The notes: generated by a model not told the origin, from the letters alone. Numbered from the stretch's first letter, positions 18,430 through 60,971 are shown. The stretch is DNA of 64,000 nt from Candidatus Amesbacteria bacterium (GCA_027371535.1 DAHXMV010000003.1:8047-72046), one strand, 5' to 3'. Numbers and translations are program-made.

Positions 18430-18452
18430 AGTGAGAACGTTATAATTAAATA

Positions 18453-20340: not shown

Positions 20341-20401
20341 TGCACATGGCTAAATGTCCGTAGTATTGTCTTATGACGAAGTCAGAAACAATTCTTTGTG
20401 T

Positions 20402-20860: not shown

Positions 20861-20864
20861 ATGC

Positions 20865-22311: not shown

Positions 22312-22400
22312 TTACAAAAAACGATAACATTATGACTTTTTGATTACAAATTTTCTCACTAGGATAAAACATAATCTGGGGGTTTGGAACTCAGTATTAT

Positions 22401-22901: not shown

Positions 22902-22961
22902 ACCAAATATTTAAAATTTGTTAGATTTGATTAGTATTATATGCTTCATATCCTAAGAAAT

Positions 22962-23639: not shown

Positions 23640-23817
23640 TGTGGCTTTCCATTGCCTGCCTGATTAATGACGAGGATATTTTTAATGCCTTAATTCTTGG
23701 TAAAAGCAGTGTATATTGAGAGGTCCCTTGTTTTAACTTTGGCTGCACCTTTTCACATTTGCTTATCGTCGAATCTATAGACCGGAGAGCTTCTTCCAAT
23801 TCTTCTTTGGTAAACAC
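23620..23817 (-). CDS. small hypothetical protein (65 aa)
   Basis: ORF only. Overlaps the start of the ICMT-like gene by 20 bp. Confidence 0.25.
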   Translation of the reverse strand: MFTKEELEEALRSIDSTISKCEKVQPKLKQGTSQYTLLLPRIKALKISSSLIRQAMESHNETLKT

Positions 23818-23843
23818 ACGGAAAGTATATCAAATATCAGACA

Positions 23844-24326
23844 CTATCCGGGGTTTTGAAGAAAGAGAACCAGACCGAGGAGAAAGAGGAGGGTGCTGGC
23901 AAGAAGGGCTGTCAGAACCGGGCCGATCCAGGGGACAGGCAAAAGAAAAAAGATATCAGGATCCAGCAAAGTTTTGGGCCAGCCAATGAGGATTTTGAGA
24001 AAAACGTAGTAGAAAATATCCCACAGGGAAAAAGCAATTAAAAAAGCCCCGATTTTGGATTTTATATTTTTCCCGGCGAGTAAACCCACAGTTACAAGCA
24101 TCACCATGGTGGCAAATTCCCGGAACATTTCAGTCACAGTAGTACGGGCAGAAAGTAGGACCGGAGCAGAAAACTGAACAAAAGAAATAAAGCCAAGGTT
24201 TAATAAGACTGTGACTCCGGATGGCGGATAAGCGGGGAGAGAGCTCCGGAGATAGACAACCACGGCGGCTTCGACATAGGCAAAAGCCACAGAAAATAAA
24301 CAAAGGGAAACTAAACGGGATTTCAT
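23844..24326 (-). CDS. hypothetical polytopic membrane protein
   Basis: 160 aa, 4-5 hydrophobic helices. Sits immediately downstream of the oxidoreductase gene. Confidence 0.4.
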   Translation of the reverse strand: MKSRLVSLCLFSVAFAYVEAAVVVYLRSSLPAYPPSGVTVLLNLGFISFVQFSAPVLLSARTTVTEMFREFATMVMLVTVGLLAGKNIKSKIGAFLIAFSLWDIFYYVFLKILIGWPKTLLDPDIFFLLPVPWIGPVLTALLASTLLFLLGLVLFLQNPG

Positions 24327-27192: not shown

Positions 27193-27567
27193 ATGAATGA
27201 TAATAACCCCAAGGGGAATAAATTAACCCCGGAGGAAGAAAACGTCATTGTTTTTAAAGGGACAGAGCCTCCGGGGACGGGAGAGTATGAGGACTTTTGG
27301 GAGCCCGGGGTATATGTGTGCAAAAGATGCGGATCCCCGCTTTACAAATCGGAGAGTAAATTTGACGCCAGGTGCGGCTGGCCGAGTTTTGACCAGGAAC
27401 TCCCCAAAGCAGTCAGCAAGACCATTGACGCGGACGGGGAGAGAGTAGAGATCAGCTGTGCCAAATGCGGAGCCCATCTGGGGCACGTGTTTACCGGAGA
27501 AGAACTGACACCGACCAATGTGCGCCATTGTGTCAACTCGATTGCCATGAAGTTTGTACCAAAATAG
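27193..27567 (+). CDS. msrB: peptide-methionine (R)-S-oxide reductase MsrB
   Basis: CxxC...CxxC zinc site (CKRCGSPL...CAKCGAHLGHVF) and catalytic RHCVNSIAM motif. Confidence 0.85.
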   Translation: MNDNNPKGNKLTPEEENVIVFKGTEPPGTGEYEDFWEPGVYVCKRCGSPLYKSESKFDARCGWPSFDQELPKAVSKTIDADGERVEISCAKCGAHLGHVFTGEELTPTNVRHCVNSIAMKFVPK

Positions 27568-28045
27568 AAAATTAAAATCGATTTATGAATTGGGATTTAT
27601 GATTTATGAAAAAGACAGAAACGGCAGTTTTCGGAGGGGGTCAACCGACAAACCGGGCTATGAGACAGTCGGCGTGGGGATAACCGGTCATGCCAAAGTA
27701 GTACGGATTGAATTTCAGCCGGAGATAATCAGTTTTAAAACTTTATTAGAGGTATTTTTTGAACTCCATGACTCAACAACTTTAAACCGACAGGGGGCGG
27801 ATGCAGGAACACAATACCGATCGGTAATACTATTTACCAATGACAAACAAAAAACCGAAGCGGAAAAGTATAAAAATAAAATCCCGAATTCAAATACCGA
27901 AATTATAAATTTGGATAAGTTTTATCCGGCTGAAACTTATCATGAAAACTACTATGAAAAAAATTCCGACTATCCATACTGCCAACTGGTGATCTCCCCG
28001 AAACTGAACAAGCTCCGGCAAAAATTCGAAAACCTACTTTCTTAG
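27554..28045 (+). pseudogene. msrA: MsrA-like (peptide-methionine (S)-S-oxide reductase) lacking the catalytic GCFWG region; probably disrupted
   Basis: C-terminal two thirds match MsrA (TGHAKVVRIEF, FFELHDSTTLNRQGADAGTQYRSVI, PAETYHENYYEKN). The canonical N-terminus MKKTETAVFGGG sits in the +1 frame (27606-27683) and stops after 25 codons. About 25 codons spanning the CFWG catalytic Cys appear to be missing. Confidence 0.5.
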
Positions 28046-35192: not shown

Positions 35193-35201
35193 AGATTAAT
35201 T

Positions 35202-37610
35202 CTACACGAATTCCCGTATCACATACCGGTAATAAATTACTTTGGCAAAATCAGCTATAAACAGATAAAGCAGTGTAAACAGAAAAATCGGGGTCATAGA
35301 GGCAAAACCAATCGAAGACAGGGAAAATACCCTGCGGGTAAGTTCCAGCGCCGGGAGACCAGTAGAAACTAAAAAAGTAAAAATTGCGGCTACGATCAGG
35401 CTGACAGAGGGCGGGGCCGTCTGCCAGAAAAAATCCCTGTTTCTGATATAAAAAACCACTATGAGCTGGGTGAACAATAAAAAAAGAAAAAACTCCGTCC
35501 TGCCTGAATGAAAGTTGTAATATAACAGCTGATAAACAGAAGTGAGAAATCCCGTCACCAAAGTAAAGATGAGCAGTTTTTTAACCTGATAAATTCCGGG
35601 CCGGAGCAACTCTTTGGAATCAACATGATCCCCGGATATGGTAATTAAAGGAATCTGACTGAAAGAACTGATTAAGAGAACCTGGGAAGAATTGAGAGGA
35701 AGACCAGGCAATCTGAGATACAACCAGGCCAGGGTAAAAAAGAAGGAAAAGTTTCCGATCATGGTAAACCTGAGATATTTATTGATATTGGCAAATATTG
35801 TCCGGCCGGATTTAATTCCGGAAATGATGACTTCCAGATCGCGTTTTAAAAGAACCACATCCGCATTTTCCTTGGCAATATCGGTGGCGGTATCCACGGC
35901 AATGGCGACATCGGCGGCCTTCAAAGCCGGAGCATCATTGATGCCGTCCCCCTGATAAGCCACAACCTGGTCTTTCTTAAATAATTTCACCAGGGTGTGC
36001 TTATCTTCCGGTGTCAGTTCTGCAAAAACATGGGTTGCAGGCAGCAGTTTTTGCAGCTGATTTTCCGTCATAGTTCGCATCCGGCCACCGGTGATTATCG
36101 AATCACCATCACTGATTAAGCCGATCTGGCGGCCGACAAAGGCAGCGGTTTCCCGGGTATCCCCGGTGAGGATTTTTATCGAAATACCCAAATCTTTTGC
36201 CATTCTGACAGTCATTTTGGTTCCCGGACGTAAGGGATCGGTAAGTCTGAGAATTCCGGCCAATTTTGAATGGTGACGAAGCGCAAAAACATCCATCCCC
36301 GGATGATAATCTATTTCGGAATAAGCAACCGCCTGATGACGAAAACCGCGGTTTGACTCCCGGGCAATGGTTTCCAACAGGAGTTTATTTTCTTTTGCCC
36401 CACTGTCAGAAAGAATAGCCTGGGCAGAACCAATTTCAACTGATAAATATTTCAGGGTATTAATATTTTGCAGGATGACCCATTTTCTTCTGGCCACTGA
36501 ATCATACGGCAATTCCTGAATTTTTTTGTAAACAGCTGCCCGGGATTTCAGAGCAGGAGAAATATATTTTTCCATGGCCAGATCGTAAGCATCGGTATAT
36601 TTGTGATGTTTTTTGTCAGGGTCATCAATTGAAGCATATACCAGAATCTGAGCAATTTCGGGATCACCTGCAACTATACCATCAATAATAATGTGATTTT
36701 CAGTCAGAGTTCCGGTTTTGTCGGTGCACAGCAGGGTGACATTCCCAAAATCTTCGAGGGCAGAAAGTTTTTTTATCAGAACGTGTTTTTTTGACAAACG
36801 GTCGGCCCCGGCGGATAAAGCTATTGTGACGATTACCGGCAAGACCTCGGGAATAATACCGATGGTTAAAGCGAACATGAATATTAAATTTTGGGTGAGG
36901 GTAACCGGACTATGGAGGATAAAAGTTTTAATCAGAAATAAAGAAACAATACAAGTCAGGGCGATTTTTAAAAGCAGGCCGGAGAAGTCGTTCAAAGACT
37001 GACCAAACGGGGTGACTTTTTCGGTTTGAGTTGTAAGTAAAGCAATTTTTCCCAATCCGGCGGAGTTGCCCGTGGCCTGAACCAGGGCCCGGGCTTCACC
37101 TTTTTCCACCACACTGCCGGAGTAGACCGGGTCGGTGATTTGTTTGTGAACAGGCTGAGACTCACCCGTCAACGGGGATTCATTTACCAACAAATCCGTA
37201 GATGTGAGAATCCGGGCGTCGGCAGGGATGATATCACCGGTTTTAACGAGGATAACGTCACCGGGAACCAAATCCCCGGTGTTGAGGATGACATGTTTAT
37301 TATCCCTGATAACAATGATGTGTCTGTCGATAAAACGGGACAATTTATCGAGGGTGGTTTCGGAACGGTATTCCCGGACAAAACCCAATAAGGTGTTGAA
37401 GACCAGAATGACCGAAATAACCAGACCATCAGTAATATCGGCCGTTATAAATGCAGCCAAAGCGGCAACCATTAACAGATAAACAATGGAGTTATTAAAC
37501 TGTCGCAGAAAAACGTCCAAGGCAGTAGTTTTACGGCCGGAATAAGTATTCGGGCCAAATTTAAGACGAAGCCCGGCAGCTTCGGCTGTGGTCAAACCGG
37601 GGTGTTCCAT
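35202..37610 (-). CDS. cation-transporting P-type ATPase (P2/P3-type), paralog 2
   Basis: DKTGTLTEN, PEVLPVIVT, TGDT, GDGINDAPALKAADVAIAV. 802 aa. Confidence 0.9.
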   Translation of the reverse strand: MEHPGLTTAEAAGLRLKFGPNTYSGRKTTALDVFLRQFNNSIVYLLMVAALAAFITADITDGLVISVILVFNTLLGFVREYRSETTLDKLSRFIDRHIIVIRDNKHVILNTGDLVPGDVILVKTGDIIPADARILTSTDLLVNESPLTGESQPVHKQITDPVYSGSVVEKGEARALVQATGNSAGLGKIALLTTQTEKVTPFGQSLNDFSGLLLKIALTCIVSLFLIKTFILHSPVTLTQNLIFMFALTIGIIPEVLPVIVTIALSAGADRLSKKHVLIKKLSALEDFGNVTLLCTDKTGTLTENHIIIDGIVAGDPEIAQILVYASIDDPDKKHHKYTDAYDLAMEKYISPALKSRAAVYKKIQELPYDSVARRKWVILQNINTLKYLSVEIGSAQAILSDSGAKENKLLLETIARESNRGFRHQAVAYSEIDYHPGMDVFALRHHSKLAGILRLTDPLRPGTKMTVRMAKDLGISIKILTGDTRETAAFVGRQIGLISDGDSIITGGRMRTMTENQLQKLLPATHVFAELTPEDKHTLVKLFKKDQVVAYQGDGINDAPALKAADVAIAVDTATDIAKENADVVLLKRDLEVIISGIKSGRTIFANINKYLRFTMIGNFSFFFTLAWLYLRLPGLPLNSSQVLLISSFSQIPLITISGDHVDSKELLRPGIYQVKKLLIFTLVTGFLTSVYQLLYYNFHSGRTEFFLFLLFTQLIVVFYIRNRDFFWQTAPPSVSLIVAAIFTFLVSTGLPALELTRRVFSLSSIGFASMTPIFLFTLLYLFIADFAKVIYYRYVIREFV

Positions 37611-37634: not shown

Positions 37635-38410
37635 TCAGACTTTTTCGATGCGGAAGGATTTCATTAAGGAAAGAAGTTCAGTTTTTATTTTTGGCAAAGT
37701 CTTCGAAGTTCCATTACCATATAAAATGGCATTTATTAGAGGAGAAATATTAACAATAATAAAATAGCCAGAGATATATATTTTTTCATAATTTGATATG
37801 GAATCTGTCTCTTTCCAATTCGGTAACAGTTCATTTCCTGATAATGAAAGGCTGCTTTTAGAAAATTTCATGATATTGGCCATTCCGGACATGAGGAGTT
37901 TTAACGGCCAACCCGATACTGACGAACTAATATCAGAATGCGTCCAGGCAGCGGCTTGAATTATTTCGGCCGGATAACCACAAACTTTAATTCGTGCTAT
38001 CTGACGTATGCTTTTTAAGTCGGGGACTAGCAACGGTTGCGGGTCTCCAAAAACGGTTAGCCAATTTTTTTGGTCAGCTTCTCCCAAACGATAGTGTTCC
38101 GGGACAGACCAATCTTTAGCCATAGGGAATTTAACAATATAGCCTCCCAACCAAGACTGGTAATAATTTGATTTTGGCAGATATCTTGTAGAGACACCAT
38201 TATTTATCGACCCGATGGTAAAGTAATTCACACCATTAGCATAAGGCCATATTTTTTCCAGATCGGTGACATATCAAAAATCATGCAACCATCAATCCAA
38301 TGTCCAGGGAAATTTGGAAAAACTAATTTGTAGCCAACTCTTTTTTCCTGTAATTTAACAAACTGATAGTATAAATAAGAAGGCAGAAAAGCTAATAAAT
38401 CGTTTAACAC
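37635..38410 (-). pseudogene. hypothetical protein split into two ORFs (38228..38410 and 37635..38231) by an apparent -1 frameshift
   Basis: The upstream ORF ends ...YGLMLMV-stop. The downstream ORF begins at an overlapping GTG (ATGGTGTGA). Reading through with one base removed gives a continuous protein of about 258 aa. The region is AT-rich. Confidence 0.35.
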
Positions 38411-38586
38411 AGTAATTATTATAATATAACCTCAGAAAGCAGGACAGCGTAGGTAATCACTGATTTGGAGGTAACGGGCGGTCAGCAGCGAATTTGACAC
38501 AGGCGTAGACGCAGCCGGGATAAGCGGCCGAAGAATGCGGATAGGTACGACGCTTGATTGAAAAATTCACAAAAGCGCTTCTTTAG

Positions 38587-39201
38587 CTAGAACAGGGAGG
38601 GCTGGGCAGAAGAGCTTTCGGCGGGATAGGAAAAATCCACTGCGATTTCACGGGGAGTATTCCAGTGGTCGGAAAATTTAAGTTTATGATTTTTTAATCC
38701 GTAATCGTATATATCCCGGGTTAAGATGACATCCATTTCGCAATATTTTCGGAGTTTTTTCAATGATGCCTGATCATGTTTTTTCCAGTACATGACTGCG
38801 TTTGCCCCGGAATCATTTTTAACGTTCCCCAAAGTATACCTGGCAATTTTATTCAGTGAAATACGTTTACCAAAGGCCTCTTTAACGTGATTTAATATAT
38901 CAAAGTGCGACAGCCTGGCAAAATCCGGGGGGGCATAAGGTTTGAGAGCAGGAACGTCAAAATTAAGCGAATTAAATCCAACAATCCGGTCAGCTTCACG
39001 AAAGAATTTCCACATGGCTTCCAACTCAGGTTCAAAAAAACTGTGCATTCCACCCGCAACTTCCTTTAAATCGTTGTCCAACCGGCGGGTATAGAGCGAA
39101 ACCAGTGAGACTCCCAAATCAGCCGGATCCTGGGTACCGGTTTCGTCAAAAAATTTCTGGGTTTCGACATCAAAAATTACTTCAAAAAATGTTTCAGGCA
39201 T
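38587..39201 (-). CDS. predicted 3'-5' exonuclease related to the PolB exonuclease domain, paralog 2
   Basis: Exo I VIFDVETQ, Exo II GFNSLNFDVP, Exo III YCEMDVILT. Same family as 32168..32785. Confidence 0.65.
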   Translation of the reverse strand: MPETFFEVIFDVETQKFFDETGTQDPADLGVSLVSLYTRRLDNDLKEVAGGMHSFFEPELEAMWKFFREADRIVGFNSLNFDVPALKPYAPPDFARLSHFDILNHVKEAFGKRISLNKIARYTLGNVKNDSGANAVMYWKKHDQASLKKLRKYCEMDVILTRDIYDYGLKNHKLKFSDHWNTPREIAVDFSYPAESSSAQPSLF

Positions 39202-39225
39202 AAGTAGGTATTATATTATATAAAT

Positions 39226-39771
39226 ATGAGCAGGTATGCGGGAAGGGATTTTGAAGGCCAAAAGTATATAGAATTAAATTATTCCGGGGAAAGTTTTAAA
39301 TTCACCAGATTTATCAAATGTGAATTCAGAAATTGTAATTTTTCGGGGGTAATTTTGGACGGGACATTTTTTGACAACTGTATTTTCCCCGGCTGTAAAC
39401 TGTCCAATCTGGATTTTGAAAAATCAGAATTCAGAAAGTGCAACTTTGAGAAAAGCATCCTGGTCAACTGCGTATTTCAGAAGAAAGTCGGAAATAAAAG
39501 TAAAAAATGCGTTTTAACTTCGAATAATTTTGACGGGTGCGATCTGACAGGGTCGATATTTAACCTGTGTAACCTGTCAGGAAAGAGGTTTGATAAAACT
39601 AATTTTACCGGATGTATATTTGAAAAAACCAATCTGGCTCATGCAGATTTTACCAACTGCAAAATCGAAGGGGCTAATTTTAACGGGGCGCATGTTGAGG
39701 ATACGGTATTGGATATAGACGGATTTTTGAATTTCGGGAAAGCCAAGGGGTTTGTTTTAAATGTTGATTAA
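39226..39771 (+). CDS. pentapeptide-repeat protein
   Basis: Tandem 5-residue repeats (CEFRNCNFSGVILDGTFFDNCIFPGCKLSNLDFEKSEFRKCNFEKS...). Confidence 0.8.
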   Translation: MSRYAGRDFEGQKYIELNYSGESFKFTRFIKCEFRNCNFSGVILDGTFFDNCIFPGCKLSNLDFEKSEFRKCNFEKSILVNCVFQKKVGNKSKKCVLTSNNFDGCDLTGSIFNLCNLSGKRFDKTNFTGCIFEKTNLAHADFTNCKIEGANFNGAHVEDTVLDIDGFLNFGKAKGFVLNVD

Positions 39772-39831
39772 TTTTCAATTTTTAATTTTTAATTAATATA
39801 TTTAATCATAAGTGTTCAATATAATTATTTT

Positions 39832-41697
39832 GTGAAGAGAGTATTAATTATTATAGGGGCAATTACATTTCTGACGTCTGCCGGAAAAGCAGAGGCAAAA
39901 GACTACACTATACAAAAAGCGGATTTTGGGATTAGTCTGACCCAAAACGGAGACGCCCGGGTGACGGAGAACAGAACTTATAATTTTAACGGCAGTTTTT
40001 CCTGGGCCGATGTCCCAATCGGCCTGTCTGCCGATTGTGTCCGGGTATTCCCCTGCCGGGATTATGTAATAGACGACGTCACGGTAAGTGATGAAAACGG
40101 GCCATTAAGATTTGACCGAATTAAATCAGCTGAATCTCTGGATATTAAATGGTATTTCAACGCCAGCAATCAAGTTAAAACGTTAACTTTAAGCTATGTC
40201 GTCAGAGACGCTGTCATCCGGCATCCGGATACGGATGAATTTTACTGGCAGCTGATTAATAACCAATGGGTCAAAGGAACGGCCGAAGTTAGTGCCAAAG
40301 TAACCCTGGCGGAGCCAGCCGGAAATAACCAAATATATGCCTTCGGACACGGGCCTTTCAACGGCCGGGTGACCATACCAAATAACCGGGAAGCCGACTT
40401 TTCAGCTGCCAACCTGACAGATCACCAAAGATTTGAAATCAGGGTCCTGTTCCCAAACGGCGGCAATCAATTAATCAGGCAGAGCCACCAGACCCTGTCT
40501 GAAATATTGGATGAAGAAAAAGGGTTGGCTAACCAAACCAAAACCGAAATAAAGAAGCAAAAAGTATGGTTGGACCTGGCTTTAGCAACCGCAATCGTGA
40601 TCTTTTCAGTCATAGCTTTCAGGATTGGATATTGGACCCGGAAGTGGTGGAATACCGGCCGCGATTTGCCGGAACCAATGGTCAATCCGGCCGGGACTTT
40701 GCACGAACCGCCGTCCGACCTAGATCCGGGAATGGTAGAAACTTTAATAAATTGGAACATGAAACCAACCGGTCGTGCGATTGCCGCTACAATAATAAAT
40801 CTGATAAGAAAAAGGGCTTTAGTTATGGAAAAAGAAAAGCAGGATCCGGTGCTGGGAATTTTTTCCAGGGGCGATAAATACATATTAGTCTGGAATCCGA
40901 AATATAACCGGGATCTGATGACACCCCTGGAAAGGAATTTATTTGATTTCCTGTTCTTTTCGGCCGAAGGCGGAGCGGTAACTTTGGAATCAATAAAAAA
41001 TATGGGCAAAACCAGGCCTAAAGAAACCGGTAATTTCTGGAAAAACTGGCAAAAGGATTGCCTGTTAAATCTGGTAACCTCCGGATACCTGGAAGAGGGA
41101 AATTATGAAGCAGCGCTCAAAATAGATAAAGAGAGCGGGATTTTTATGGGTATCGGTACTTTCGGACTGATATTGGGGGTGAGATTATTTACCGTGAATA
41201 CAACTTTTCTTTTGGTCATACTCGGATTTTCATCGGTAAGTATTCTGGCCGGGATAATCCTCAGTCAATTAAAAATTGCCATGGAAAAAAGAACCCCCGA
41301 CGGCGGACAGGCGTATGCGAACTGGAAAGCCTTTAAAAAATACCTGAAAGATTACAGCGTGACCAAAAGCTCACCGATTGATTCGGTGGTGTTGTGGGAA
41401 AAATATCTGGTATACGGAGCAGCTTTGGGCATATCCATTAAAGCCCTGTCACAGTTGCCGGTGAATTATTCCGAGGCTTTTGCCGGATCCGGAATATATA
41501 CCGGATTTTCCGGAGGAGCCGGATTTAACCAGGCGGATTTTGCAGGCAACTTTTCCGGTATGTTTTCAGGCTTTTCAGCTGTTTCATCAGGTTTTTCCAG
41601 TTTCGGTGCTTACGGCGTCGGCAGCGGGGGAGGATTTTCCGGGGGCGGAGGCGGCGGAGGAGGGGGCGGAGGCGGCGGAGGAGGCGGAGCAGGGTAG
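39832..41697 (+). CDS. DUF2207-family membrane protein with C-terminal poly-Gly tail
   Basis: Signal peptide, about 230-aa extracytoplasmic domain, TM helices flanking a cytoplasmic segment, C-terminal GGGFSGGGGGGGGGGGGGGGGAG. Matches the architecture of DUF2207 proteins. Confidence 0.55.
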   Translation: MKRVLIIIGAITFLTSAGKAEAKDYTIQKADFGISLTQNGDARVTENRTYNFNGSFSWADVPIGLSADCVRVFPCRDYVIDDVTVSDENGPLRFDRIKSAESLDIKWYFNASNQVKTLTLSYVVRDAVIRHPDTDEFYWQLINNQWVKGTAEVSAKVTLAEPAGNNQIYAFGHGPFNGRVTIPNNREADFSAANLTDHQRFEIRVLFPNGGNQLIRQSHQTLSEILDEEKGLANQTKTEIKKQKVWLDLALATAIVIFSVIAFRIGYWTRKWWNTGRDLPEPMVNPAGTLHEPPSDLDPGMVETLINWNMKPTGRAIAATIINLIRKRALVMEKEKQDPVLGIFSRGDKYILVWNPKYNRDLMTPLERNLFDFLFFSAEGGAVTLESIKNMGKTRPKETGNFWKNWQKDCLLNLVTSGYLEEGNYEAALKIDKESGIFMGIGTFGLILGVRLFTVNTTFLLVILGFSSVSILAGIILSQLKIAMEKRTPDGGQAYANWKAFKKYLKDYSVTKSSPIDSVVLWEKYLVYGAALGISIKALSQLPVNYSEAFAGSGIYTGFSGGAGFNQADFAGNFSGMFSGFSAVSSGFSSFGAYGVGSGGGFSGGGGGGGGGGGGGGGGAG

Positions 41698-54513: not shown

Positions 54514-56111
54514 ACAGCAGATTTTAGTTCCCGGATGATAAGTTGCAAGTTGGTCCGGCCGTTCCAGGTGTGGGAGTCCAGCTGATAAGTCAAATCAGCG
54601 GCGGTTAAATCGTTTTCCAACCCAGCCGGAGCATTAAAATAAATTGCTTCCAGACCGGAAGCATTAAACCTGAGGTGGCGGGCTCCCGTGCCGATGCGTC
54701 TGGCGAAATTTACCGGCATGCCGAAAGACATTAATACAGGCCTGGGGTTTCCCAAACCAAAAGGGGCAAAATCAGACAGTCTAAGATATAAATCGAGCCC
54801 CAAAAGCTCCGCGGGTATTTGAGCATCGATACGCTGATTTCTGACTAAAACCCGGTCCGGAACCGCAGTCCGGCTAATTTCAATAATCCGGGATTTTAAC
54901 TCGTTTAGTTTGGCGGTGGGGACAGAAAACCCAGCCGCCATACTGTGACCGCCGACGGAAGTTAAAATGTCAGGAAATTGCCGCAGAAATTCGGTGATAT
55001 GAAAACCGGTTACTGATCTGGCTGAAGCCTTACTGACCTCGGCGCCGACACTGACAGCGATAGCCGGACGATAATATTTTTCCACAAGCTTTGAAGCAAT
55101 CAGACCGACGATGCCTTCATCATATTGGGAGTCGGCAACCATAAGAATTCCCGGCAAATTCAAGGGGTCAAATTGGGCCAGGGCGTGATCGGCGGATTTT
55201 TGAGTAAGTTCCTGGCGATGACGATTGGTGTCAGCCAATAATTTGGCTAAATCCGCGGCTTTTTGAGAGTCAGTAGTACACAGCAGACGCAGACTGTCCA
55301 AAGCATGCCCCAGACGTCCCATGGCATTTAGCCGGGGGCCGATGACAAAACCCACTTCATATGCGCCGATTCCACCAGGGCTGAGGCCGGCTTCGGAAAA
55401 CAGGGCTAACAGACCGGGCCTGGCGGTGGCATTTAACTGAGACAGGCCCCATTTGGCCAGACTGCGGTTGATCCCCAACAGCGGCACCAGGTCGCAAATA
55501 ACGGAGATGGCAGCAAATGTTAATAACTCTGATTCATGATTTAAGAATGATGATTCACGATTTTTGAGAAATTCGCGGATAAAGAACCAGGAAATACCGG
55601 CAGCACTGGTTTGGGTGGTGTGCAAGATAGCATCCGCCCGGGGAATTTCGGAGCCGGCTTCGTGGTGGTCGATGATAATTATCTGACAACCGCGGCTGTG
55701 GCAATAATCTACCGCCTTACCAGCCACAATACCGCTGTCGACCACGATAATCAGGCGGGCGCCTTTTTCCAGACAACGGTCGATACCGGTTTTAGTCAGG
55801 CCATAACCTTCTTCACGGCGGTGGGGAATATAAGGAAAAACAGATTTGGTAAAGCCATACAGAGTTTCCCAAATAATGGCCGTGGAACAGATACCGTCTA
55901 CGTCGTAATCACCGTAAATAGCAATTGAGTTATTAGTTGTCAGTTGTTGGTTGATAACAGAGATAGCAGAAGAAACGGCGGATTCAGAAAGACCGACAAC
56001 GGAAAGAGGAATATCCAGAGGATTCGGGGGGTGGAAAAATGCTTCGACCAGCCCGGGGCTATCCAGCCCGCGATTTTTGAGCAGGATTGAGATTAATTCA
56101 TCGGCGGTCAT
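54510..56111 (-). CDS. recJ: single-stranded-DNA-specific exonuclease RecJ
   Basis: DHH family motifs GDYDVDGICSTAI and IIIDHHEAG, plus a DHHA1 C-terminal region. Confidence 0.85.
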   Translation of the reverse strand: MTADELISILLKNRGLDSPGLVEAFFHPPNPLDIPLSVVGLSESAVSSAISVINQQLTTNNSIAIYGDYDVDGICSTAIIWETLYGFTKSVFPYIPHRREEGYGLTKTGIDRCLEKGARLIIVVDSGIVAGKAVDYCHSRGCQIIIIDHHEAGSEIPRADAILHTTQTSAAGISWFFIREFLKNRESSFLNHESELLTFAAISVICDLVPLLGINRSLAKWGLSQLNATARPGLLALFSEAGLSPGGIGAYEVGFVIGPRLNAMGRLGHALDSLRLLCTTDSQKAADLAKLLADTNRHRQELTQKSADHALAQFDPLNLPGILMVADSQYDEGIVGLIASKLVEKYYRPAIAVSVGAEVSKASARSVTGFHITEFLRQFPDILTSVGGHSMAAGFSVPTAKLNELKSRIIEISRTAVPDRVLVRNQRIDAQIPAELLGLDLYLRLSDFAPFGLGNPRPVLMSFGMPVNFARRIGTGARHLRFNASGLEAIYFNAPAGLENDLTAADLTYQLDSHTWNGRTNLQLIIRELKSAV

Positions 56112-57487
56112 GCTACAATTTTAACAGGATGATCATAAATCTCAGAACACCGGTAAAAGTAAGTGAAGTTTTTAAAAAATTCCGGCTGGCAACCCTTGAA
56201 ATTTACATGGTGGGCGGACTGGTGAGGGACGTTATGCTAAAAAGACAGCTGTATGATTGGGATTTCACCACACCGGCCACACCGGAAGAAATTTTGACGT
56301 TATTCCCGGAGGCTTTTTACGACAATAAATACGGGACGGTGGGAATTCCCATGGGCGAGGGGGAAAGACCGCTGGAAATCACCACGTTCAGGTCAGAAAA
56401 AGGCTACAGCGATTCGAGACATCCCGATGAGGTGACCTGGGGAAAAACCCTGGAGGAAGATCTGATGCGGCGGGATTTTACCATTAACGCCATGGCCCTG
56501 AAGCCCCTGACCGGAAATAAATTTGAAGTGATTGATTTATACCACGGAACGGACGATTTAAATAATAAAATCCTGCGGGCTGTCGGGAATCCGGAGGAGA
56601 GATTTGCCGAAGATGCTCTAAGAATGATGCGGGCCGTGAGGATTACGACCCAACTGGGGTTTGCCATAGAAGAGGAGACTTTTACAGCCATCAAAAACAA
56701 TGCGGCAAAGATTACCGAAATTTCCGCAGAAAGAGTCCGGGATGAATTATTAAAAATTCTGGCAGCAGATTTCCCGGCCGACGGATATCTTCTTCTTCGA
56801 AACTGCGGACTGGGGGAAATTATTCTGCCGGAGATAGAAAAAACCTTCGGGGTGGAACAAAAAAGCCCCGGCAGACATCATATTTACGACGTTGGGACGC
56901 ACAGCGTAGAGGCCCTCAGAAACTGCCCAAGTCATGACCCGATTACCCGGCTGGCCACCCTGATCCACGACGCGGGAAAAGCCAGAACCCAAAGGATCTA
57001 TCCCGACGGCAGAATCACATTTTACAACCATGAAATGGAGAGTGAAAAAATCGCCCTGGCAATTTCCGAACGGCTGAGGTTTTCCAATGAACAAAAGGAT
57101 AAATTTGTCCGGCTGGTCAGATGGCATCAATTTTCCGTGGATGAAAAACAAACCGACAGTGCCATCCGCAGATTTCTGAAAAATACGGGGTTGGCCAATG
57201 TATGGGACATGCTGGACCTGAGAACCGGCGACCGCCTGGGGGGAGGAGCCAGGGAAACCAGCTGGAGGCTGGAGGAATTTAAAAAAAGATTGATTGAGGT
57301 GCAAAAACAACCCTTCAGTATTCCGGATTTGAAAATCTCCGGTAATGACATTATGGAAATGAAAAAAATTACCTCCGGGCCGCTGGTAGGCAAATACCTG
57401 GAGAAAATATTTACCGAAGTGACGGAGTATAATCTGCCCAATGAACGGGGGATTTTGTTAAAAAGGCTCTCGGAAATAAACTTGTAA
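56087..57487 (+). CDS. cca: CCA-adding tRNA nucleotidyltransferase with HD domain
   Basis: GGLVRDVMLKR...DWDFTT (pol-beta NTase head), RFAEDALRMMRAVR, HD motif LIHDAGK. The true start is probably an internal Met near 56129. Confidence 0.85.
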   Translation: MRLIHRRSCYNFNRMIINLRTPVKVSEVFKKFRLATLEIYMVGGLVRDVMLKRQLYDWDFTTPATPEEILTLFPEAFYDNKYGTVGIPMGEGERPLEITTFRSEKGYSDSRHPDEVTWGKTLEEDLMRRDFTINAMALKPLTGNKFEVIDLYHGTDDLNNKILRAVGNPEERFAEDALRMMRAVRITTQLGFAIEEETFTAIKNNAAKITEISAERVRDELLKILAADFPADGYLLLRNCGLGEIILPEIEKTFGVEQKSPGRHHIYDVGTHSVEALRNCPSHDPITRLATLIHDAGKARTQRIYPDGRITFYNHEMESEKIALAISERLRFSNEQKDKFVRLVRWHQFSVDEKQTDSAIRRFLKNTGLANVWDMLDLRTGDRLGGGARETSWRLEEFKKRLIEVQKQPFSIPDLKISGNDIMEMKKITSGPLVGKYLEKIFTEVTEYNLPNERGILLKRLSEINL

Positions 57488-57522: not shown

Positions 57523-58056
57523 ATGGAAATATTTATTCTCCTGATCATCCTGGTTATCACAACCGTTATTTTTGTCTGGACAATTTATATGATTATAGGA
57601 GACGCCGCGGGGGCGCCGTTTGTGACCGTAGATGATAATGTGCTGGTAAAAATACTGGAACAGATGAAGTTGAAAAAGGGGTCAGATTTTTGGGATCTGG
57701 GCAGCGGAAACGGAAAAGCGGTATTCCTGGCGGTGAGAAAATACGGGACTTTCGGATACGGGACGGAGATTAATCCCCTGCTGGTCCTATATTGCAGGAT
57801 AAAGGCTGGCCTATCGGGATCGAAAAAGGTAAAATTTGAAATGAATAATTTATTTAAAACAGATATCAGCCGGGCTGATTATATTTATTTTTACTTATTT
57901 AAGGGAACCGTGGAAAAAGTATCACAAAAACTGGAAAAAGAATGCCGGCCAGGGACAATGGTCGCATCCAGAGGGTTTGAAATATTCAGATGGAAAAATA
58001 GACTGACCCGGATTTTGGAAACCAACGGCTGGAAAACTTATTTTTATAAGGTCTAG
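57523..58056 (+). CDS. TM-anchored class I SAM-methyltransferase-like protein, paralog 1
   Basis: N-terminal TM. Motif I-like DLGSGNGKAVFLAV. About 40% identical to the next gene. Confidence 0.45.
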   Translation: MEIFILLIILVITTVIFVWTIYMIIGDAAGAPFVTVDDNVLVKILEQMKLKKGSDFWDLGSGNGKAVFLAVRKYGTFGYGTEINPLLVLYCRIKAGLSGSKKVKFEMNNLFKTDISRADYIYFYLFKGTVEKVSQKLEKECRPGTMVASRGFEIFRWKNRLTRILETNGWKTYFYKV

Positions 58057-58058
58057 TT

Positions 58059-58598
58059 ATGTGGTGGAAAGTAATCGCCGAATGGGTAATTTTAATAATT
58101 CAGTTCGGACTGGCGATTTTTATGTTTTATATGATGGCGGCATTTTATACCGGGGCACCCCTCGTTTTAACCAGGAGAAAAATCATTAAAAAAATGCTGG
58201 ATGAGGCCGGGCTGAAACCGGGCCAATTATTTATTGAGCTGGGCTGCGCGGAGGGGCGGGTATTAAGAACCGCAGTCAAAGATTACCATGTCCGTGGCAT
58301 GGGATATGAAATAAATTTTTTCCTGGTATGGTGGGGCAGAATCATGGCCGGACTGCAGCACTTAAAAAATATCAGGTTTATAGTCAAAAACTTCTGGAAA
58401 GCGGATTTGTCCGGAGCGGATGTGATTTATGCCTATCTGTTTCCGGATACCATGCAAAAATTAAAAGTCATCTTCGATAAAACCGGGAAAAAGAATTTAC
58501 TGGTAATTTCCAGAGTGTTTGAAATCAAAGGCTGGGAAAATAAACTGATCAAGAAAATTCCGGAGGGGGATGACTGGATTTATTATTACAGGAAATAG
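58059..58598 (+). CDS. TM-anchored class I SAM-methyltransferase-like protein, paralog 2
   Basis: N-terminal TM. ELGCAEGRVLRTAV motif I-like. Tandem duplicate of 57523..58056 with shared blocks (GYxxEIN...AD.IY.YLF...R.FEI.GW.N). Confidence 0.45.
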   Translation: MWWKVIAEWVILIIQFGLAIFMFYMMAAFYTGAPLVLTRRKIIKKMLDEAGLKPGQLFIELGCAEGRVLRTAVKDYHVRGMGYEINFFLVWWGRIMAGLQHLKNIRFIVKNFWKADLSGADVIYAYLFPDTMQKLKVIFDKTGKKNLLVISRVFEIKGWENKLIKKIPEGDDWIYYYRK

Positions 58599-58607
58599 GT
58601 TTTTAAC

Positions 58608-60971
58608 GTGTCAGAAATTACCATTCCAGGATACGGTACAAGCAAAGACGCAGGCCGACCAAGGTTACTACCTCACGATATATTGGAAAAAAACATAGTT
58701 GTTCCAATGATCGACTTTGCCGATAAACCACTTGCTGAACAGACAATTAAATACTTTCCCCAGGAGAAATCAGAAGAACTGGCAAGGCAAATTACAGTCA
58801 AGGATTTTAATGAAATTATATTCGGAGGCCTACCTGAAAATTTAAGAAAAGCGATAAGTTTGTCTCCTGAAGAGGTTCGGGAATTAATAAATACGGATGT
58901 TCAGGAAAGAGCGGAAGACAGAACAACAGTCATTTTACAGATAAAAGCAAAAAATTTAGTGGCAGCCTATATCAGCCAGGCGGCGGCGGAAGAATTGAAA
59001 AGGCTGGATCTGACGGGCTATAAACTTTCCGAAGTCGATAAAACCGTATTAGAAGCCGTCCAAGGCCAGGCAGAAGATAGAACCCGGGAACTAATAGAGT
59101 TGGAAGAAGAGGTTCAAATTCTTAAGAAGTGGCCCGGAGCCGATGCAAAAGATTTGGTAAGACAAAAAAGAAAACTGCTGTATGAAACAAATCTACTGGC
59201 GGGATTGGCGATTTCAACGGAACACGTATCCCCGGAAATGTACAGATTTTCCAACTTCCATAAAGGTTTGATGCAAGCAACTTTGAAGAATTCAGCAGGA
59301 TTAGTCGCCGACAGAGCCTCCGGGATTTATACCAGAGAAAATGCAGGGACATTTGCCCACCTTTTGGGATTAAATATTGCCAGAGAAAAAATGCTACCCG
59401 CGTTGACGCCGACAAATGATTATGGCGTGGAAGTATTTACCTCCGGGATGGGCGCATTGGGATCGGTTTTAGAATCAATATCCCAGGCATGGCATCCTGA
59501 CACCATCATGGCATCCGGTATTTATTTTGAATTACCCGTGGTAGCACAAAACGCAAATACAATTAAGGAGGTCGAACCGGTGGGCGAAAATTTTTATTTT
59601 GATATAGCTACCAAATTAAAACAGGGCCAAAAACCTTTGGCAGTTTTTGCCCAGCCTTTCAGCAGCGGTGTGGATGATATGGTGGTGGATACAAAGAGAA
59701 TCCTGGAAATTATAAAAAACAATGACGGCAATCAACCGGTATTCTTAGTTTTGGATACCACCATGCACGGAGTAAATATAAATTTTTGGCCGCAGGTTAA
59801 TGAAATTACCAGTGCAGGAAAAGACTTCACCCTAATTGAAATTCAGAGCTTGGTGAAGCACGGCCAATTGGGATTGGATGCCGTACCGGGAGGCGTAGCA
59901 TTGGCTTACGGAACCCATCCGGAAATAATCAGTACAACCATAGGCAGCCGGGCTACAATGATGCCAGAAGCAAACGCAGCCGTGCTATTTCCCTTTTTGG
60001 GAGAAGTCCAGTCACACCGGATTGAAAGAGCAGGAAGGAATGCTGAATACCTGGCGAAAGGCCTGTCAGAATCACAAAAAGATAACCCTTTGATTGACAG
60101 TGTGTATTACGCTCCGACGGCAGATGAAGCAGCCAAAAAAGTCAGCAGCCAATATGAAACAAAATCGCCGATCTTATTTTTAAAACTCAATCCGGTAATT
60201 CCGGAACGAACGCTGGTTTTTTGGTTATCAGATTTGTCCGGTATAAATTACAATTTTCCCGAGTCAGGAATCGGAACCAGCTACGGCTTTGACGGCACCC
60301 GGTTTGAAAATATTCCCATTGGCCGCGACGGAGGCGTGAGTATCAGAATTGCTGCAGGTCAGGAATCCATGCTTCAGGTTATGGCCCTGGAAAAGTACCT
60401 AGATTATTATCTTAACAAACCGGAGTTGAATGAATATGTAAGCAGGGATTTAAAAAGCGAAATCAGACAGATAGTCAGCCCGATGGAATATCAAAAAGAA
60501 GATTTTAAATATAGCTTCTATTTTCTTCCAGGAATGAATCGCAATTCTAATTCCGATAAATATTTACAAAATATGGAAAATGGCCGCGTTTTGAGATATT
60601 TTTCGGATCAGGTCCGGGGGCGGTTGCTGGTTAAGGAATTTACCGATAAACCCGGATTGGCAACCCGACTGGAAATAACCCAAAAGGAAATTGAAGATCT
60701 GAAAGGTACTTTTGATAAACCGGAAGAAATTAACCAGATATTTACATCCTGGATGATTACACAGCCGGAATATATCGGTGCATTGAGGCATAAATTGGCA
60801 ATCAGAGGTAAGATGCCGTCTGAAGAAACCACTTATCAGATCGCCAGACTGGTCACGGATAATAAGGCGGTAAAAATAATTCTTGGACCGATTGCCAAAA
60901 TGTCAAACCAAATTCTGGCAGATTTGAAAGATAAATTTGAGGAAAAAACAGGATTCAAGCTCCCGGGATAA
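58608..60971 (+). CDS. large hypothetical protein with embedded Cys/Met-metabolism PLP-dependent-enzyme-like core
   Basis: 787 aa. N-terminal about 240 aa is coiled/repetitive (ERAEDRTTVILQ / GQAEDRTRELIE). The middle has ...VLDTTMHGV... and ...IEIQSLVKHGQLGLDAVPGG..., resembling the CGS/CBL/MGL motifs VVDNTFxTP and SxTKYLxGHSDVVxG (the Lys is retained). C-terminal about 230 aa has no recognised motif. Confidence 0.4.
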   Translation: MSEITIPGYGTSKDAGRPRLLPHDILEKNIVVPMIDFADKPLAEQTIKYFPQEKSEELARQITVKDFNEIIFGGLPENLRKAISLSPEEVRELINTDVQERAEDRTTVILQIKAKNLVAAYISQAAAEELKRLDLTGYKLSEVDKTVLEAVQGQAEDRTRELIELEEEVQILKKWPGADAKDLVRQKRKLLYETNLLAGLAISTEHVSPEMYRFSNFHKGLMQATLKNSAGLVADRASGIYTRENAGTFAHLLGLNIAREKMLPALTPTNDYGVEVFTSGMGALGSVLESISQAWHPDTIMASGIYFELPVVAQNANTIKEVEPVGENFYFDIATKLKQGQKPLAVFAQPFSSGVDDMVVDTKRILEIIKNNDGNQPVFLVLDTTMHGVNINFWPQVNEITSAGKDFTLIEIQSLVKHGQLGLDAVPGGVALAYGTHPEIISTTIGSRATMMPEANAAVLFPFLGEVQSHRIERAGRNAEYLAKGLSESQKDNPLIDSVYYAPTADEAAKKVSSQYETKSPILFLKLNPVIPERTLVFWLSDLSGINYNFPESGIGTSYGFDGTRFENIPIGRDGGVSIRIAAGQESMLQVMALEKYLDYYLNKPELNEYVSRDLKSEIRQIVSPMEYQKEDFKYSFYFLPGMNRNSNSDKYLQNMENGRVLRYFSDQVRGRLLVKEFTDKPGLATRLEITQKEIEDLKGTFDKPEEINQIFTSWMITQPEYIGALRHKLAIRGKMPSEETTYQIARLVTDNKAVKIILGPIAKMSNQILADLKDKFEEKTGFKLPG

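Follow-up and report, generated by a model that had tools for sequence, protein, structure and literature searches.

The PLP-dependent enzymes of the Cys/Met-metabolism (gamma) family, represented by MGL, CGS and CGL (PF01053; e.g. PDB entries 9qm6, 4mkj, 1cs1 and 8j6n), are about 390 amino acids long and form homotetramers that are built as dimers of active dimers. Their catalytic layout consists of a YxR motif, an SGM loop, a stacking Tyr, an Asp, S-x-x-K and the Arg of R-x-x-x-G-x-E. YGC and KD stretches serve as criteria for methioninases (PMC11568061). In BesB (9aua/9aub), Fub7 (8erb) and CndF (8zif), gamma-family cores with extra N-terminal segments belong to secondary metabolism and have been recruited to non-canonical chemistry. 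Among the small methyltransferases, aKMT4 methylates protein lysines with broad specificity, and its Dot1-type core is not accompanied by recognition domains (PMC4639711). Both aKMT/aKMT4 of Sulfolobus islandicus (5fa8, 5fad, 5jwj; NCBIfam model NF041081) and the Salinibacter protein 5bxy have a minimal Dot1-like core of about 150 residues.

Here, relatives of both groups were found side by side in a stretch of 64,000 nucleotides, referred to below as the window. The best named matches of the AspRS encoded in the window come from the Microgenomates group, Woesebacteria and Patescibacteria, and the host genome is that of a tiny-genome bacterium of the Microgenomates group (Patescibacteria/CPR). 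The three adjacent ORFs that a preliminary description had reported at 57523-60971 are present at exactly these coordinates on one strand: 57523-58056 (177 aa), 58059-58598 (179 aa) and 58608-60971 (787 aa, GTG start). They are separated by 2 nt and 9 nt, respectively, and are preceded by cca, which ends 35 nt upstream of the first ORF. The sequence strings on which the preliminary description was based were located as DLGSGNG at residue 58 of the first protein (MT1), ELGCAEG at residue 60 of the second (MT2), and VLDTTMHGV at residue 381 and SLVKHGQLGLDAVPGG at residue 414 of the third. The features of the locus, with the evidence for each, are as follows:

56087..57487, + strand: CCA-adding enzyme (cca), context gene (Pfam PolyA_pol, PolyA_pol_RNAbd, HD)
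57523..58056, + strand: MT1, 177 aa, aKMT/DOT1-like class I SAM methyltransferase homologue (PDB, Pfam, NCBIfam, hydropathy)
57529-57597, + strand: predicted TM helix of MT1, residues ~3-25 (hydropathy)
58059..58598, + strand: MT2, 179 aa, paralogue of MT1 (PDB, alignment to MT1, 171 homologues)
58074-58145, + strand: predicted TM helix of MT2, residues ~6-29 (hydropathy)
58608..59339, + strand: N-terminal helical region of the 787-aa protein, residues 1-244 (AF2, hhalign, conservation)
59340..60407, + strand: fold-type I PLP core, residues ~245-600 (Foldseek, hhalign, residue table)
within 59340..60407, + strand: S279-G280-M281, predicted phosphate loop, and S558, a further key core residue (alignment)
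59523-59525, + strand: Y306, predicted ring-stacking Tyr (alignment, 14-member table)
59754-59756, + strand: D383, predicted pyridine-N Asp (alignment, 14-member table)
59856-59858, + strand: K417, predicted Schiff-base Lys (S414..K417; alignment, 14-member table)
60345-60347, + strand: R580, predicted alpha-carboxylate Arg (alignment, 14-member table)
60408..60971, + strand: C-terminal all-helical domain, residues ~601-787, and stop codon (AF2, Foldseek, Pfam)

In the reading that we prefer, with a probability of about 0.6, two unrelated things adjoin each other at this locus, an aKMT-like methyltransferase pair and a PLP enzyme from a deep branch of the gamma family.

The 787-aa protein and its PLP core

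The central third of the 787-aa protein had been taken for a divergent Cys/Met-metabolism PLP-like core, and both the fold and the profile comparisons bear this out. A Foldseek search of the PDB with the AF2 model gave 357 matches at E<=1e-3, of which the best 50 were without exception fold-type I enzymes of the gamma family (MGL, CGS or CGL type; best E 2.6e-10, prob 1.0) with TMt values of 0.48-0.67, and 0.57-0.67 in 47 of them; for 9qm6, 4mkj and 1cs1 the TM-score against the target is 0.62-0.64. Sequence identity to MGL, CGS and CGL amounts to 14-19%. The 787-aa protein itself has no match to PF01053 (gathering threshold 27 bits) at E<=1. Only one of ten close homologues matches this model (E 7.6e-7); scores of 14-18 bits were obtained for P0013 and P0014. 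No NCBIfam threshold is reached by the 787-aa protein, the best model being CGL at E 0.055, and PDB searches with the single sequence and with the profile of its family (the 780-aa family) alone gave no significant match.

The link at the sequence level is provided by the nearest relative of the 780-aa family, an uncharacterised PLP family of about 500 aa (alignments A3/A4, loci L007-L086). When the two were compared by hhalign, a probability of 99.9 and an E-value of 4.5e-36 were obtained. The ~500-aa family passes the PF01053 threshold (E 1e-24 to 1e-15) and matches CGL/MGL structures in the PDB at E 3e-20 with the Lys, Asp and Arg in register. Since the searches with curated models and the direct PDB searches fail, the PLP homology of the 787-aa protein rests on its fold and on this transitive profile link; by fold and profile-profile comparison it is a relative of the PF01053 superfamily, not a member as defined by the curated model.

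The residues expected in the active site were tabulated for 14 full-length members of the 780-aa family, which share 20-45% identity. Y241, R243, M281, Y306, D383, S414, K417 and R580 are invariant in all 14, and S279 and G280 each deviate in a single member. The two blocks that had been proposed to contain the PLP-binding Lys and Asp contain K417 and D383, and both residues are thus retained in homologues down to 20% identity. Neither of the results that the preliminary description had named as refuting it, a structure prediction with neither a fold-type I PLP domain nor a Rossmann fold or a lysine that varies among homologues, was obtained. Via ESLNKYHQFG of the ~500-aa family, K417 (QSLVKHGQ) aligns with the PLP-Lys of the solved MGL/CGL enzymes (SATKY). 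D383 (LDTTMHG) aligns with the Asp of VIDNT or VVDNTF, the following Asn being exchanged for Thr, Ser or Gly, and S279-G280-M281, Y241/R243, Y306 and R580 are likewise in register with their counterpart motifs, so that the catalytic layout of MGL, CGS and CGL is retained. Secondary positions are altered as well, with DNT becoming D(T/S)T, S-x-T-K becoming S-L-(V/M)-K, YGGT becoming YFEL and the Glu of IETPTNP becoming Gln. In comparison with MGL, CGS and CGL, YFE takes the place of YGGT/YGC, and PGLxSHP is lost. The MGL-type YGC is absent: the motif of the stacking Tyr reads Y306-F307-E308 in all 14 members, without a Cys. As a result of these altered secondary active-site positions, the chemistry may differ from that of all characterised members.

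The ~500-aa family resembles the 780-aa family in its helical N-terminal extension, in (D/E)xxSP...H, YxR, SGM and YFE, and in S-L-x-K-(Y/H)-x-Q-x-G-x-D, GTS(F/Y)G and R-I-(S/A)-x-G-x-E. In contrast, it has a shorter N-terminus, ends at the equivalent of residue ~600 and thus lacks the C-terminal domain, and keeps DNT and PGLxxHP. It is also common, with about 280 representative clusters as compared to about 14 for the 780-aa family, and occurs in Patescibacteria (Gottesman-, Uhr-, Magasanik-, Levy- and Adlerbacteria) and Thermoleophilia. Its genes are usually paired with a gene for an AstE/AspA-type deacylase (45 of 80 loci), a pairing that is absent from the 780-aa family and from the window. 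Judged by sequence comparison and structural modelling, the 787-aa protein is predicted to represent a deeply branching and very rare lineage within the Cys/Met-metabolism (gamma) family.

With 787 as compared to about 390 residues, the protein is twice as long as the gamma-family enzymes; its N-terminal region of 244 residues and its C-terminal domain of 187 residues are both helical. The AF2 model of the whole protein has a pLDDT of 79.6 and a pTM of 0.81. No TM segment was detected (Kyte-Doolittle maximum 1.15), and the GTG start codon is favoured over M34. The N-terminus had been described as repetitive and coiled. Long helices are indeed predicted by AF2 (H87-136, H145-169, H176-203), whereas self-BLAST at E<=50 revealed no internal repeats in the protein. 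In the hhalign alignment, residues 141-244 are paired with the extended N-terminus of the ~500-aa family (STERVSP with DWQSPSF, YTRE with YKRD). This region contains a conserved STERVSP...H.G motif (E205, S208, P209, H218) and ends at Y241-x-R243, which corresponds to the phosphate-binding YxR motif of the gamma family. For the C-terminal domain, AF2 modelling of residues 598-787 gave about 11 helices at a pLDDT of 83.6. It had been called unrecognised, and so it remained in our searches, with nothing significant in Pfam and a best Foldseek match in the PDB of E 0.94 and TM 0.24. The domain is confined to the 780-aa family and is most probably an add-on for oligomerisation, partner binding or regulation.

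Taken together, the protein would be a soluble PLP-dependent enzyme with a complete predicted catalytic set. K417 would form the internal aldimine, D383 would protonate the pyridine N, and Y306 would stack on the ring and act in acid/base catalysis. Phosphate binding would be provided by S279-G280-M281 together with Y241/R243, which in the known enzymes are contributed by the partner subunit, while R580 would hold the alpha-carboxylate of the substrate. The enzyme, probably a dimer-based oligomer, would bind PLP, link an alpha-amino acid to it as an external aldimine and then carry out a gamma- or beta-elimination or replacement. A sulfur-containing or O-acyl C4 amino acid of the homocysteine, methionine, cystathionine or acyl-homoserine type appears to be the likeliest substrate.

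The methyltransferase pair

MT1 and MT2 are paralogues with 37% identity over 170 aa (E 3e-34). As stated in the preliminary description, they share an N-terminal TM helix and motif-I-like loops; hydropathy, the motif strings and the PDB, Pfam and NCBIfam matches agree in this respect. Each protein has one strongly hydrophobic segment at its N-terminus, with Kyte-Doolittle 19-residue maxima of 3.06 for MT1 and 2.32 for MT2. Downstream of it, both are homologues of Rossmann-type SAM methyltransferases. Residues 31-166 of MT1 match 5bxy (E 3.2e-17), 5fa8 (E 1.7e-14) and 5jwj (E 2.8e-13), and residues 31-171 of MT2 match 5fa8 (E 1.3e-17) and 5jwj (E 4.2e-17). Over all pairings with these three structures the E-values range from 7.7e-11 to 1.3e-17, nearly the whole chains being covered. 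MT1 scores 24.3 bits with the Pfam DOT1 model, above the cut-off of 23 bits. The top NCBIfam match of both proteins is NF041081, 'protein-lysine N-methyltransferase' (MT1 E 1.1e-11). With 44.9 bits for MT1 and 46.7 bits for MT2, both stay far below the equivalog cut-off of 200 bits and are therefore to be regarded as homologues, not equivalogs, so that the function cannot be transferred automatically.

The two proteins had also been considered far smaller than typical methyltransferases. They align end to end with aKMT-type methyltransferases of 158-172 residues, the archaeal aKMT having 161 aa, so that their size is normal for the aKMT family and the remark is moot. MT1 and MT2 are not truncated; in each, a complete aKMT/DOT1-like class I core follows the TM helix. 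Bacteria commonly possess TM-anchored homologues of 180-205 aa: among the 171 homologues of MT2 most fall into this size range, and the TM helix is covered in the alignments. MT1 and MT2 belong to an uncharacterised but widespread methyltransferase family.

Motif I, in MT2 in an altered form, and the acidic EIN motif are common to aKMT and the pair. MT1 has DLGSGNG, in which the motif I glycines are conserved, and the conserved Glu of TEIN. In MT2, motif I (ELGCAEG) is degenerate, the middle Gly being replaced by Ala, whereas MT2 orthologues carry DLGSGDG; the SAM-ribose Glu of EIN is conserved in MT2 as it is in MT1. The MT2 protein at this locus may be weakened in SAM binding. Unlike the archaeal aKMT, which has no N-terminal TM helix, MT1 and MT2 are bacterial, occur as a tandem pair and each possess one such helix. 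This tandem duplicate would be tethered to the cytoplasmic membrane by the single helix of each protein and would use SAM to methylate lysine side chains of membrane-near proteins. Lysine methylation is modelled here on archaeal aKMT, which acts on soluble proteins, and is extrapolated from archaeal enzymes to which MT1 and MT2 are about 30% identical.

Gene neighbourhood and alternative functions

A novel small-molecule modification or biosynthesis unit had been suggested for the three genes, i.e. a single operon-encoded unit in which, for example, PLP chemistry on an amino acid is followed by methylation at the membrane, or homocysteine derived through SAH from the methyltransferase reactions is recycled. 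The genes are co-directional and spaced by 2 and 9 nt, neither a convincing promoter nor a convincing terminator separates them, MetK is encoded in the same window, and from established pathway knowledge a gamma-family enzyme could in principle use SAH-derived homocysteine. However, tight same-strand packing is the norm across the whole window, and the adjacency of methyltransferase and PLP genes is unique to this genome. None of the seven other contexts of 780-aa family genes (L001/L002, L003, L004, L005, L088, L089, L090) has a methyltransferase neighbour. In a relative with a syntenic locus (L087), the order AspRS-recJ-cca-MT1-MT2 is kept and the PLP gene is missing, its place after MT2 being taken by a PNPOx-like gene, and an aKMT-like gene is found within 5 kb in only one of 80 loci of the ~500-aa family, both of which speak against a linkage. 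A common unit is hence very improbable in our view. The MT-MT-PLP adjacency is not conserved across related genomes; the methyltransferase pair, which is part of a conserved cca-MT1-MT2 block, and the PLP gene are neighbours by chance, not parts of a conserved pathway. The same block could point to an RNA substrate of MT1 and MT2, and 5bxy was deposited as 'RNA methyltransferase', which is the depositor's label and not a tested function. A membrane lipid or a quinone might likewise be methylated in place of lysine: a lipid would fit the membrane anchor, and there are weak Pfam/NCBIfam matches to cyclopropane-fatty-acid/mycolic-acid synthases (CMAS; MT2 E 3e-4). These matches are confined to about 40 residues around motif I, whereas the full-length matches are of aKMT type and the top NCBIfam model is an archaeal protein-lysine methyltransferase, and we regard a non-lysine target as somewhat unlikely.

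For the 787-aa protein, a chemistry outside classical trans-sulfuration has to be weighed against the elimination or replacement proposed above. It could be that of a peptidoglycan-precursor racemase, modelled on the gamma-family racemase TM1270 or the archaeal Ala/Glu racemase, or a C-C or C-N gamma-replacement as in Fub7, CndF and BesB. The top fold matches include TM1270 (9iz5), Fub7, CndF and BesB, but all fold matches score about equally and do not discriminate between activities. At the sequence level, the Ala/Glu racemase model NF041088 is among the NCBIfam matches of the ~500-aa family; BesB, Fub7 and CndF do not occur among the 60 listed of its 66 matches at E <= 1e-10, and no biosynthetic gene cluster surrounds the 787-aa gene within the window. 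The altered secondary active-site residues would suit such a chemistry, and the deacylase linkage of the ~500-aa family suggests an N-acyl amino acid as substrate. Two members of the 780-aa family adjoin genes for penicillin-binding-protein or beta-lactamase-like proteins, which may be chance because the neighbourhoods of this family are not conserved. Overall, we consider a non-classical activity doubtful. A catalytically dead scaffold or regulator, with the real function residing in the helical N- and C-terminal domains, seems quite improbable. About 430 of the 787 residues, more than half, lie outside the PLP core, the core has diverged too far for the Pfam and NCBIfam thresholds, and PGLxxHP and several secondary residues are lost or changed. 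Nevertheless, the residues for binding of PLP and substrate are invariant or nearly so among 14 members that share only 20-45% identity, which argues for purifying selection on catalysis.

Arrangement of the three genes

The preliminary description had assigned three open reading frames to this region. All three are present on one strand with precisely the boundaries claimed for them, and every peptide string quoted from them was found in their translations.

Open reading frames of the region
57523-58056, plus strand: MT1, methyltransferase homologue, 177 aa
58059-58598, plus strand: MT2, methyltransferase homologue, 179 aa
58608-60971, plus strand: long protein, PLP-enzyme-like, 787 aa, GTG start

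The spacing is 2 nt between MT1 and MT2 and 9 nt between MT2 and the long gene, and the gene of the CCA-adding enzyme ends 35 nt upstream of MT1. In consensus scans of the stretch from 56 to 62.2 kb, none of the sites that fall between the three genes is a convincing promoter or terminator. Over this stretch 14 promoter-like sites were counted against a shuffle expectation of 11.9, and for terminator-like sites the count was 15 against 8.2 (sd 2.6). In the public annotation the long open reading frame begins at Met34 and yields 754 aa. Since the residues upstream of Met34 are conserved (VVP is kept in homologues and P33 is nearly invariant) and the GTG at 58608 is preceded by an AGG at a distance of 8 nt, with no such element before the ATG of Met34, the GTG start is favoured.

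A PLP-enzyme core of the gamma-family in the long protein

Direct sequence searches with the long protein gave nothing significant in Pfam, NCBIfam or (with phmmer) the PDB, its sole NCBIfam match being a cystathionine gamma-lyase model with an E-value of 0.055. Profiles A1 and A2 of the 780-aa family, which comprises the long protein and its full-length relatives, found CGL 1n8p as their best PDB match (E 0.27 and 0.024, respectively), and spurious matches to an endoglucanase and a dUTPase were equally good. Because these direct searches were insignificant, the relationship to the Cys/Met-metabolism gamma-family is shown via the fold and transitively. An AlphaFold2 model calculated from a 10-sequence alignment (mean pLDDT 79.6, pTM 0.81) divides the protein into three regions.

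Regions of the long protein in the AlphaFold2 model
Residues about 25-230: helical N-terminal region
Residues about 245-600: alpha/beta core
Residues 605-787: helical C-terminal domain

Foldseek comparison of this model with the PDB yielded 357 matches at E<=1e-3 (best E 2.6e-10, probability 1.0). All of the top 50 are Cys/Met-metabolism gamma-family enzymes, including methionine gamma-lyase, cystathionine gamma-synthase, cystathionine gamma-lyase, MetY, Fub7, BesB, CndF and TM1270, with TM-scores against the target of 0.48-0.67 (0.57-0.67 when BesB and CndF are left aside). The transitive connection runs through about 280 clusters of ~500-aa proteins, which were found with the 780-aa profile at positions about 273-597 with E-values of 1e-21 to 1e-8. 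These proteins, referred to here as the 500-aa sister family, score above the threshold of Pfam PF01053 (E 1e-24 to 1e-15), and their profile A3 matches CGL and MGL structures in the PDB with an E-value of 3e-20. In a profile-profile comparison the core of the window's family was aligned with A3 at a probability of 99.9% (E 4.5e-36).

The alignments also place the catalytic residues. QSLVK417HGQ of the long protein corresponds to ESLNKYHQFG of the 500-aa family and to SATKY of the gamma-family with its Schiff-base Lys, LD383TT to IDNT or VDNTF in relatives, the SGM of residues 279-281 to the phosphate loop SGMAA, Y306FE to the stacking Tyr of YGGT, Y241-T-R243 to YKRD of the 500-aa family and the phosphate-binding YxR motif of the gamma-family, and IR580IAAGQE to IRLSVGLE with its carboxylate-binding Arg. 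In 14 full-length members with 20-45% identity, Y241, R243, M281, Y306, D383, S414, K417 and R580 are invariant; S279 and G280 deviate in one member each. The preliminary description had staked its proposal of an embedded PLP-enzyme-like core on a fold-type I domain and a conserved PLP Lys; the domain is present, and the Lys is conserved in all 14 members. We consider the core to be a homologue of the gamma-family PLP enzymes, with a probability of roughly 0.9.

At several secondary positions the 780-aa family departs from the canonical enzymes. DNT is replaced by D(T/S)T and S-x-T-K by S-L-V/M-K, the Glu of IETPTNP is Gln349 in the long protein, and the family no longer has PGLxSHP. Also missing from the long protein is the YGC stretch that serves as a criterion for methioninases, canonical examples of which occur in Peregrinibacteria (PMC11568061). 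The reaction may therefore differ from those of the characterised enzymes. Canonical outgroup sequences were sought among the representative matches, and all matches inspected fell into the same divergent clade.

Judged from its conserved residues, the long protein is probably catalytically active. PLP would be held at K417, and an alpha-amino acid gripped by R580 would form the external aldimine, with Y306 as acid/base and D383 stabilizing the protonated pyridine, so that a gamma- or beta-elimination or replacement could result. Y241 and R243 would presumably complete the phosphate site of the neighbouring subunit, as in known tetramers, and the N- and C-terminal helical additions might serve assembly or regulation. 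For the substrate, a C4 amino acid of the sulfur or O-acyl type is the leading candidate, though at clearly less than even odds.

The N-terminus had been described as repetitive. Long helices are present there, but self-BLAST revealed no internal repeat. The helices from about residue 141 on and the motif STERVSP...H.G align with the N-terminal extension of the 500-aa family and its DWQSPSF.HS motif. The extension is therefore ancestral in the clade and has been lengthened on the way to the 780-aa proteins. Only the 780-aa family possesses the C-terminal ~190 residues, and the domain modelled alone is all-helical (pLDDT 83.6). Its earlier designation as unrecognised holds, with no significant PDB match in Foldseek (best E 0.94, TM 0.24) and none in Pfam. 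A transmembrane segment was not found in the long protein (Kyte-Doolittle 19-residue maximum 1.15). New in this protein is the architecture, which adds a lengthened N-terminus and a C-terminal orphan domain to an intact gamma-family PLP active site.

The 780-aa branch is very rare, unannotated and restricted to CPR bacteria. Among 5.8 billion clustered proteins nine close homologues were found (34-45% identity, 767-785 aa), and when 1.84 billion representatives were searched exhaustively with a profile, 14 proteins at E<1e-30 were listed, several of them fragments and one of them P0019 (E 1.3e-53). When two conserved peptide motifs of the family were used as patterns, a scan that is blind to members diverged at these motifs, no member was found in 185,579 species-representative genomes. 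The same patterns gave two matches on 241 million JGI metagenome contigs, one of which is the new locus L090; the other, L091, is identical to the contig of the already collected locus L001.

Gene neighbourhoods and the 500-aa sister family

A literature search returned nothing on the PLP family formed by the 780-aa and 500-aa branches. The 500-aa branch, which is much larger, is found in two groups of organisms, namely Patescibacteria (Gottesman-, Uhr-, Magasanik-, Levy- and Adlerbacteria, Microgenomates) and Thermoleophilia-type Actinomycetota. Many of the MAGs carrying it (L007, L009-L014, L016, L017 and others) bear the title 'uncultured Gammaproteobacteria bacterium' and are TPA 'binchicken' bins. 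The proteins of these MAGs resemble the query as much as those of MAGs labelled as Patescibacteria, and the labels look doubtful.

At 45 of 80 loci (L007-L086) the 500-aa gene is adjoined by a ~300-aa gene with an AstE/AspA (succinylglutamate desuccinylase/aspartoacylase) domain (PF24827, E 1.9e-18), usually upstream and in divergent orientation, as in the following example.

Deacylase gene at the 500-aa locus L021
4009-4950, minus strand: AstE/AspA-type zinc deacylase, adjacent to the PLP gene (~5001-6503)

The two genes form a conserved module that has apparently not been described, and their linkage hints that the substrate of the clade is an amino acid freed from an N-acylated precursor. 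Neither the window nor any of the contexts of the 780-aa gene contains the deacylase. A second recurring neighbour of the 500-aa gene, ~311 aa long and lacking a Pfam match, occurs at 9-12 loci.

The preliminary description had also read the three genes as a possible biosynthetic unit. This did not hold, as the linkage is not conserved in other contexts of either part. In the sequenced flanks of seven other contexts of the 780-aa gene (L001/L002, L003, L004, L005, L088, L089, L090) there is no aKMT-like methyltransferase gene; the neighbours are unrelated housekeeping genes, namely MGMT and SIMPL, a beta-lactamase-like gene and PBPs, a ribosomal-protein/SecY cluster, and NrdR/RNR. A conserved neighbourhood of the 780-aa family was likewise rejected, the sole common neighbour being the beta-lactamase-like gene upstream of the two members P0006 and P0007, which are closely related to each other. 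An aKMT-like gene lies within 5 kb of the 500-aa gene at one of 80 loci (L021). On the syntenic contig L087 (5468-7055) from a related organism, whose MT2 is 66% identical, the gene order is kept from AspRS through small ORFs, recJ and cca to MT1 and MT2, and the place of the long gene is taken by a 119-aa PNPOx_N-like gene (pyridoxamine-phosphate-oxidase fold). The pyridoxal theme common to this gene and the long gene is probably coincidental. Since the pair occurs there without the PLP gene, the tandem methyltransferases and cca form a conserved block independent of the long gene. Tight same-strand packing is usual across this compact genome. The adjacency of the methyltransferase pair and the PLP gene is best read as incidental, which corrects the tempting inference of an operon, and the three genes are very likely functionally independent.

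It would be a larger step to regard the 780-aa and 500-aa families as a new functional class with an undescribed reaction in ultra-small Patescibacteria and Thermoleophilia, and we consider this improbable. Under such an assumption, the enzymes could salvage amino acids of the host, either N-acylated or of an unusual C4 type, together with the AstE/AspA-type deacylase or, as a separate possibility, supply D-amino acids for the cell wall, and the orphan C-terminal domain would be a regulatory or partner-docking module replacing the lost deacylase partner. In Patescibacteria metabolism is drastically reduced, and pathways of amino-acid biosynthesis are usually missing. Because of this reduction, an enzyme with a conserved active site that they have kept is a clue to how they draw on or act upon their hosts, and PLP chemistry of this kind, if real, would bear on how they live off their hosts. 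The kinds of enzyme encoded by all three genes are already known, and current understanding is not overturned. The long protein, the 500-aa family with its deacylase and the methyltransferase family are concrete targets for enzymology.

Membrane-anchored methyltransferase homologues and remaining features of the window

MT1 and MT2 are paralogues, as had been proposed, with 37% identity across 170 aa (E 3e-34), and each contains the claimed N-terminal transmembrane helix as its single strongly hydrophobic segment (Kyte-Doolittle 19-residue maxima 3.06 and 2.32, respectively). The remark that they are far smaller than typical Rossmann methyltransferases is misleading, since their size is normal for a minimal Dot1-like family with a membrane anchor of ~30 residues. 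Both match the PDB entries 5fa8, 5fad and 5jwj of the archaeal protein lysine methyltransferase aKMT (161-172 residues) and 5bxy, a Salinibacter homologue of 158 residues, over nearly their whole length (E 7.7e-11 to 1.3e-17). This near end-to-end match rules out that they are truncated Rossmann enzymes. They are new members, of known fold, of a widespread uncharacterised subfamily.

With MT2 as query, 171 homologues were found in a database search, mostly of 180-205 aa and at 95-98% query coverage including the transmembrane helix. Named sources among them are Syntrophales, Desulfobacterales and other bacteria, where the annotation is just 'class I SAM-dependent methyltransferase'. The membrane-tethered aKMT-like layout thus defines a widespread and uncharacterised bacterial family. 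A GAP motif after the transmembrane helix, motif I and an acidic EIN motif are conserved in the alignment. Motif I of MT2 (residues 60-66, window 58236-58256) reads ELGCAEG, and DLGSGDG in its four 62-69%-identical orthologues. Going by this substitution, MT2 may bind SAM less well, or it may be on its way to becoming a non-catalytic partner of MT1.

Concerning the substrate, the top NCBIfam model of both proteins is the archaeal 'protein-lysine N-methyltransferase' NF041081, at 45-47 bits and far under its equivalog cut-off of 200 bits, and MT1 exceeds the 23-bit threshold of Pfam DOT1 with 24.3 bits. aKMT4 is described as a catalytic core of the Dot1 type that lacks domains for substrate recognition, and many proteins are methylated by it (PMC4639711). 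MT1 and MT2 would then methylate lysines on membrane-proximal proteins. That both are active protein-lysine methyltransferases has slightly less than even odds in our view; a lipid or RNA substrate instead appears less likely.

Regarding the host, the AspRS of the window shares 65-70% identity with proteins named Microgenomates group, Woesebacteria and Patescibacteria group, and the relatives of the studied genes are from Patescibacteria MAGs. This places the window in a CPR/Patescibacteria genome belonging to the Microgenomates group. The GC content of the window is about 46%. It drops to 0.38-0.40 at 18001-24000 and 38001-40000, as compared to about 0.46-0.49 elsewhere; these stretches carry several small minus-strand genes of unclear function and may have been acquired horizontally as islands. 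No Rfam family was matched anywhere in the window. By eye, the only other obvious methionine-related genes are MetK (SAM synthetase, ...SESVCSGHPDKV) at 1-1173 on the minus strand, truncated at the window edge, and an MsrB/MsrA-like pair at 27193-28045 on the plus strand. Two tandem ~800-aa open reading frames at 32796-37610 (minus strand), P-type ATPase-like by eye, and a 1744-aa open reading frame at 1733-6967 (minus strand) with an N-terminal transmembrane or signal segment would be large proteins of the cell surface or of transport, as is typical of CPR genomes.
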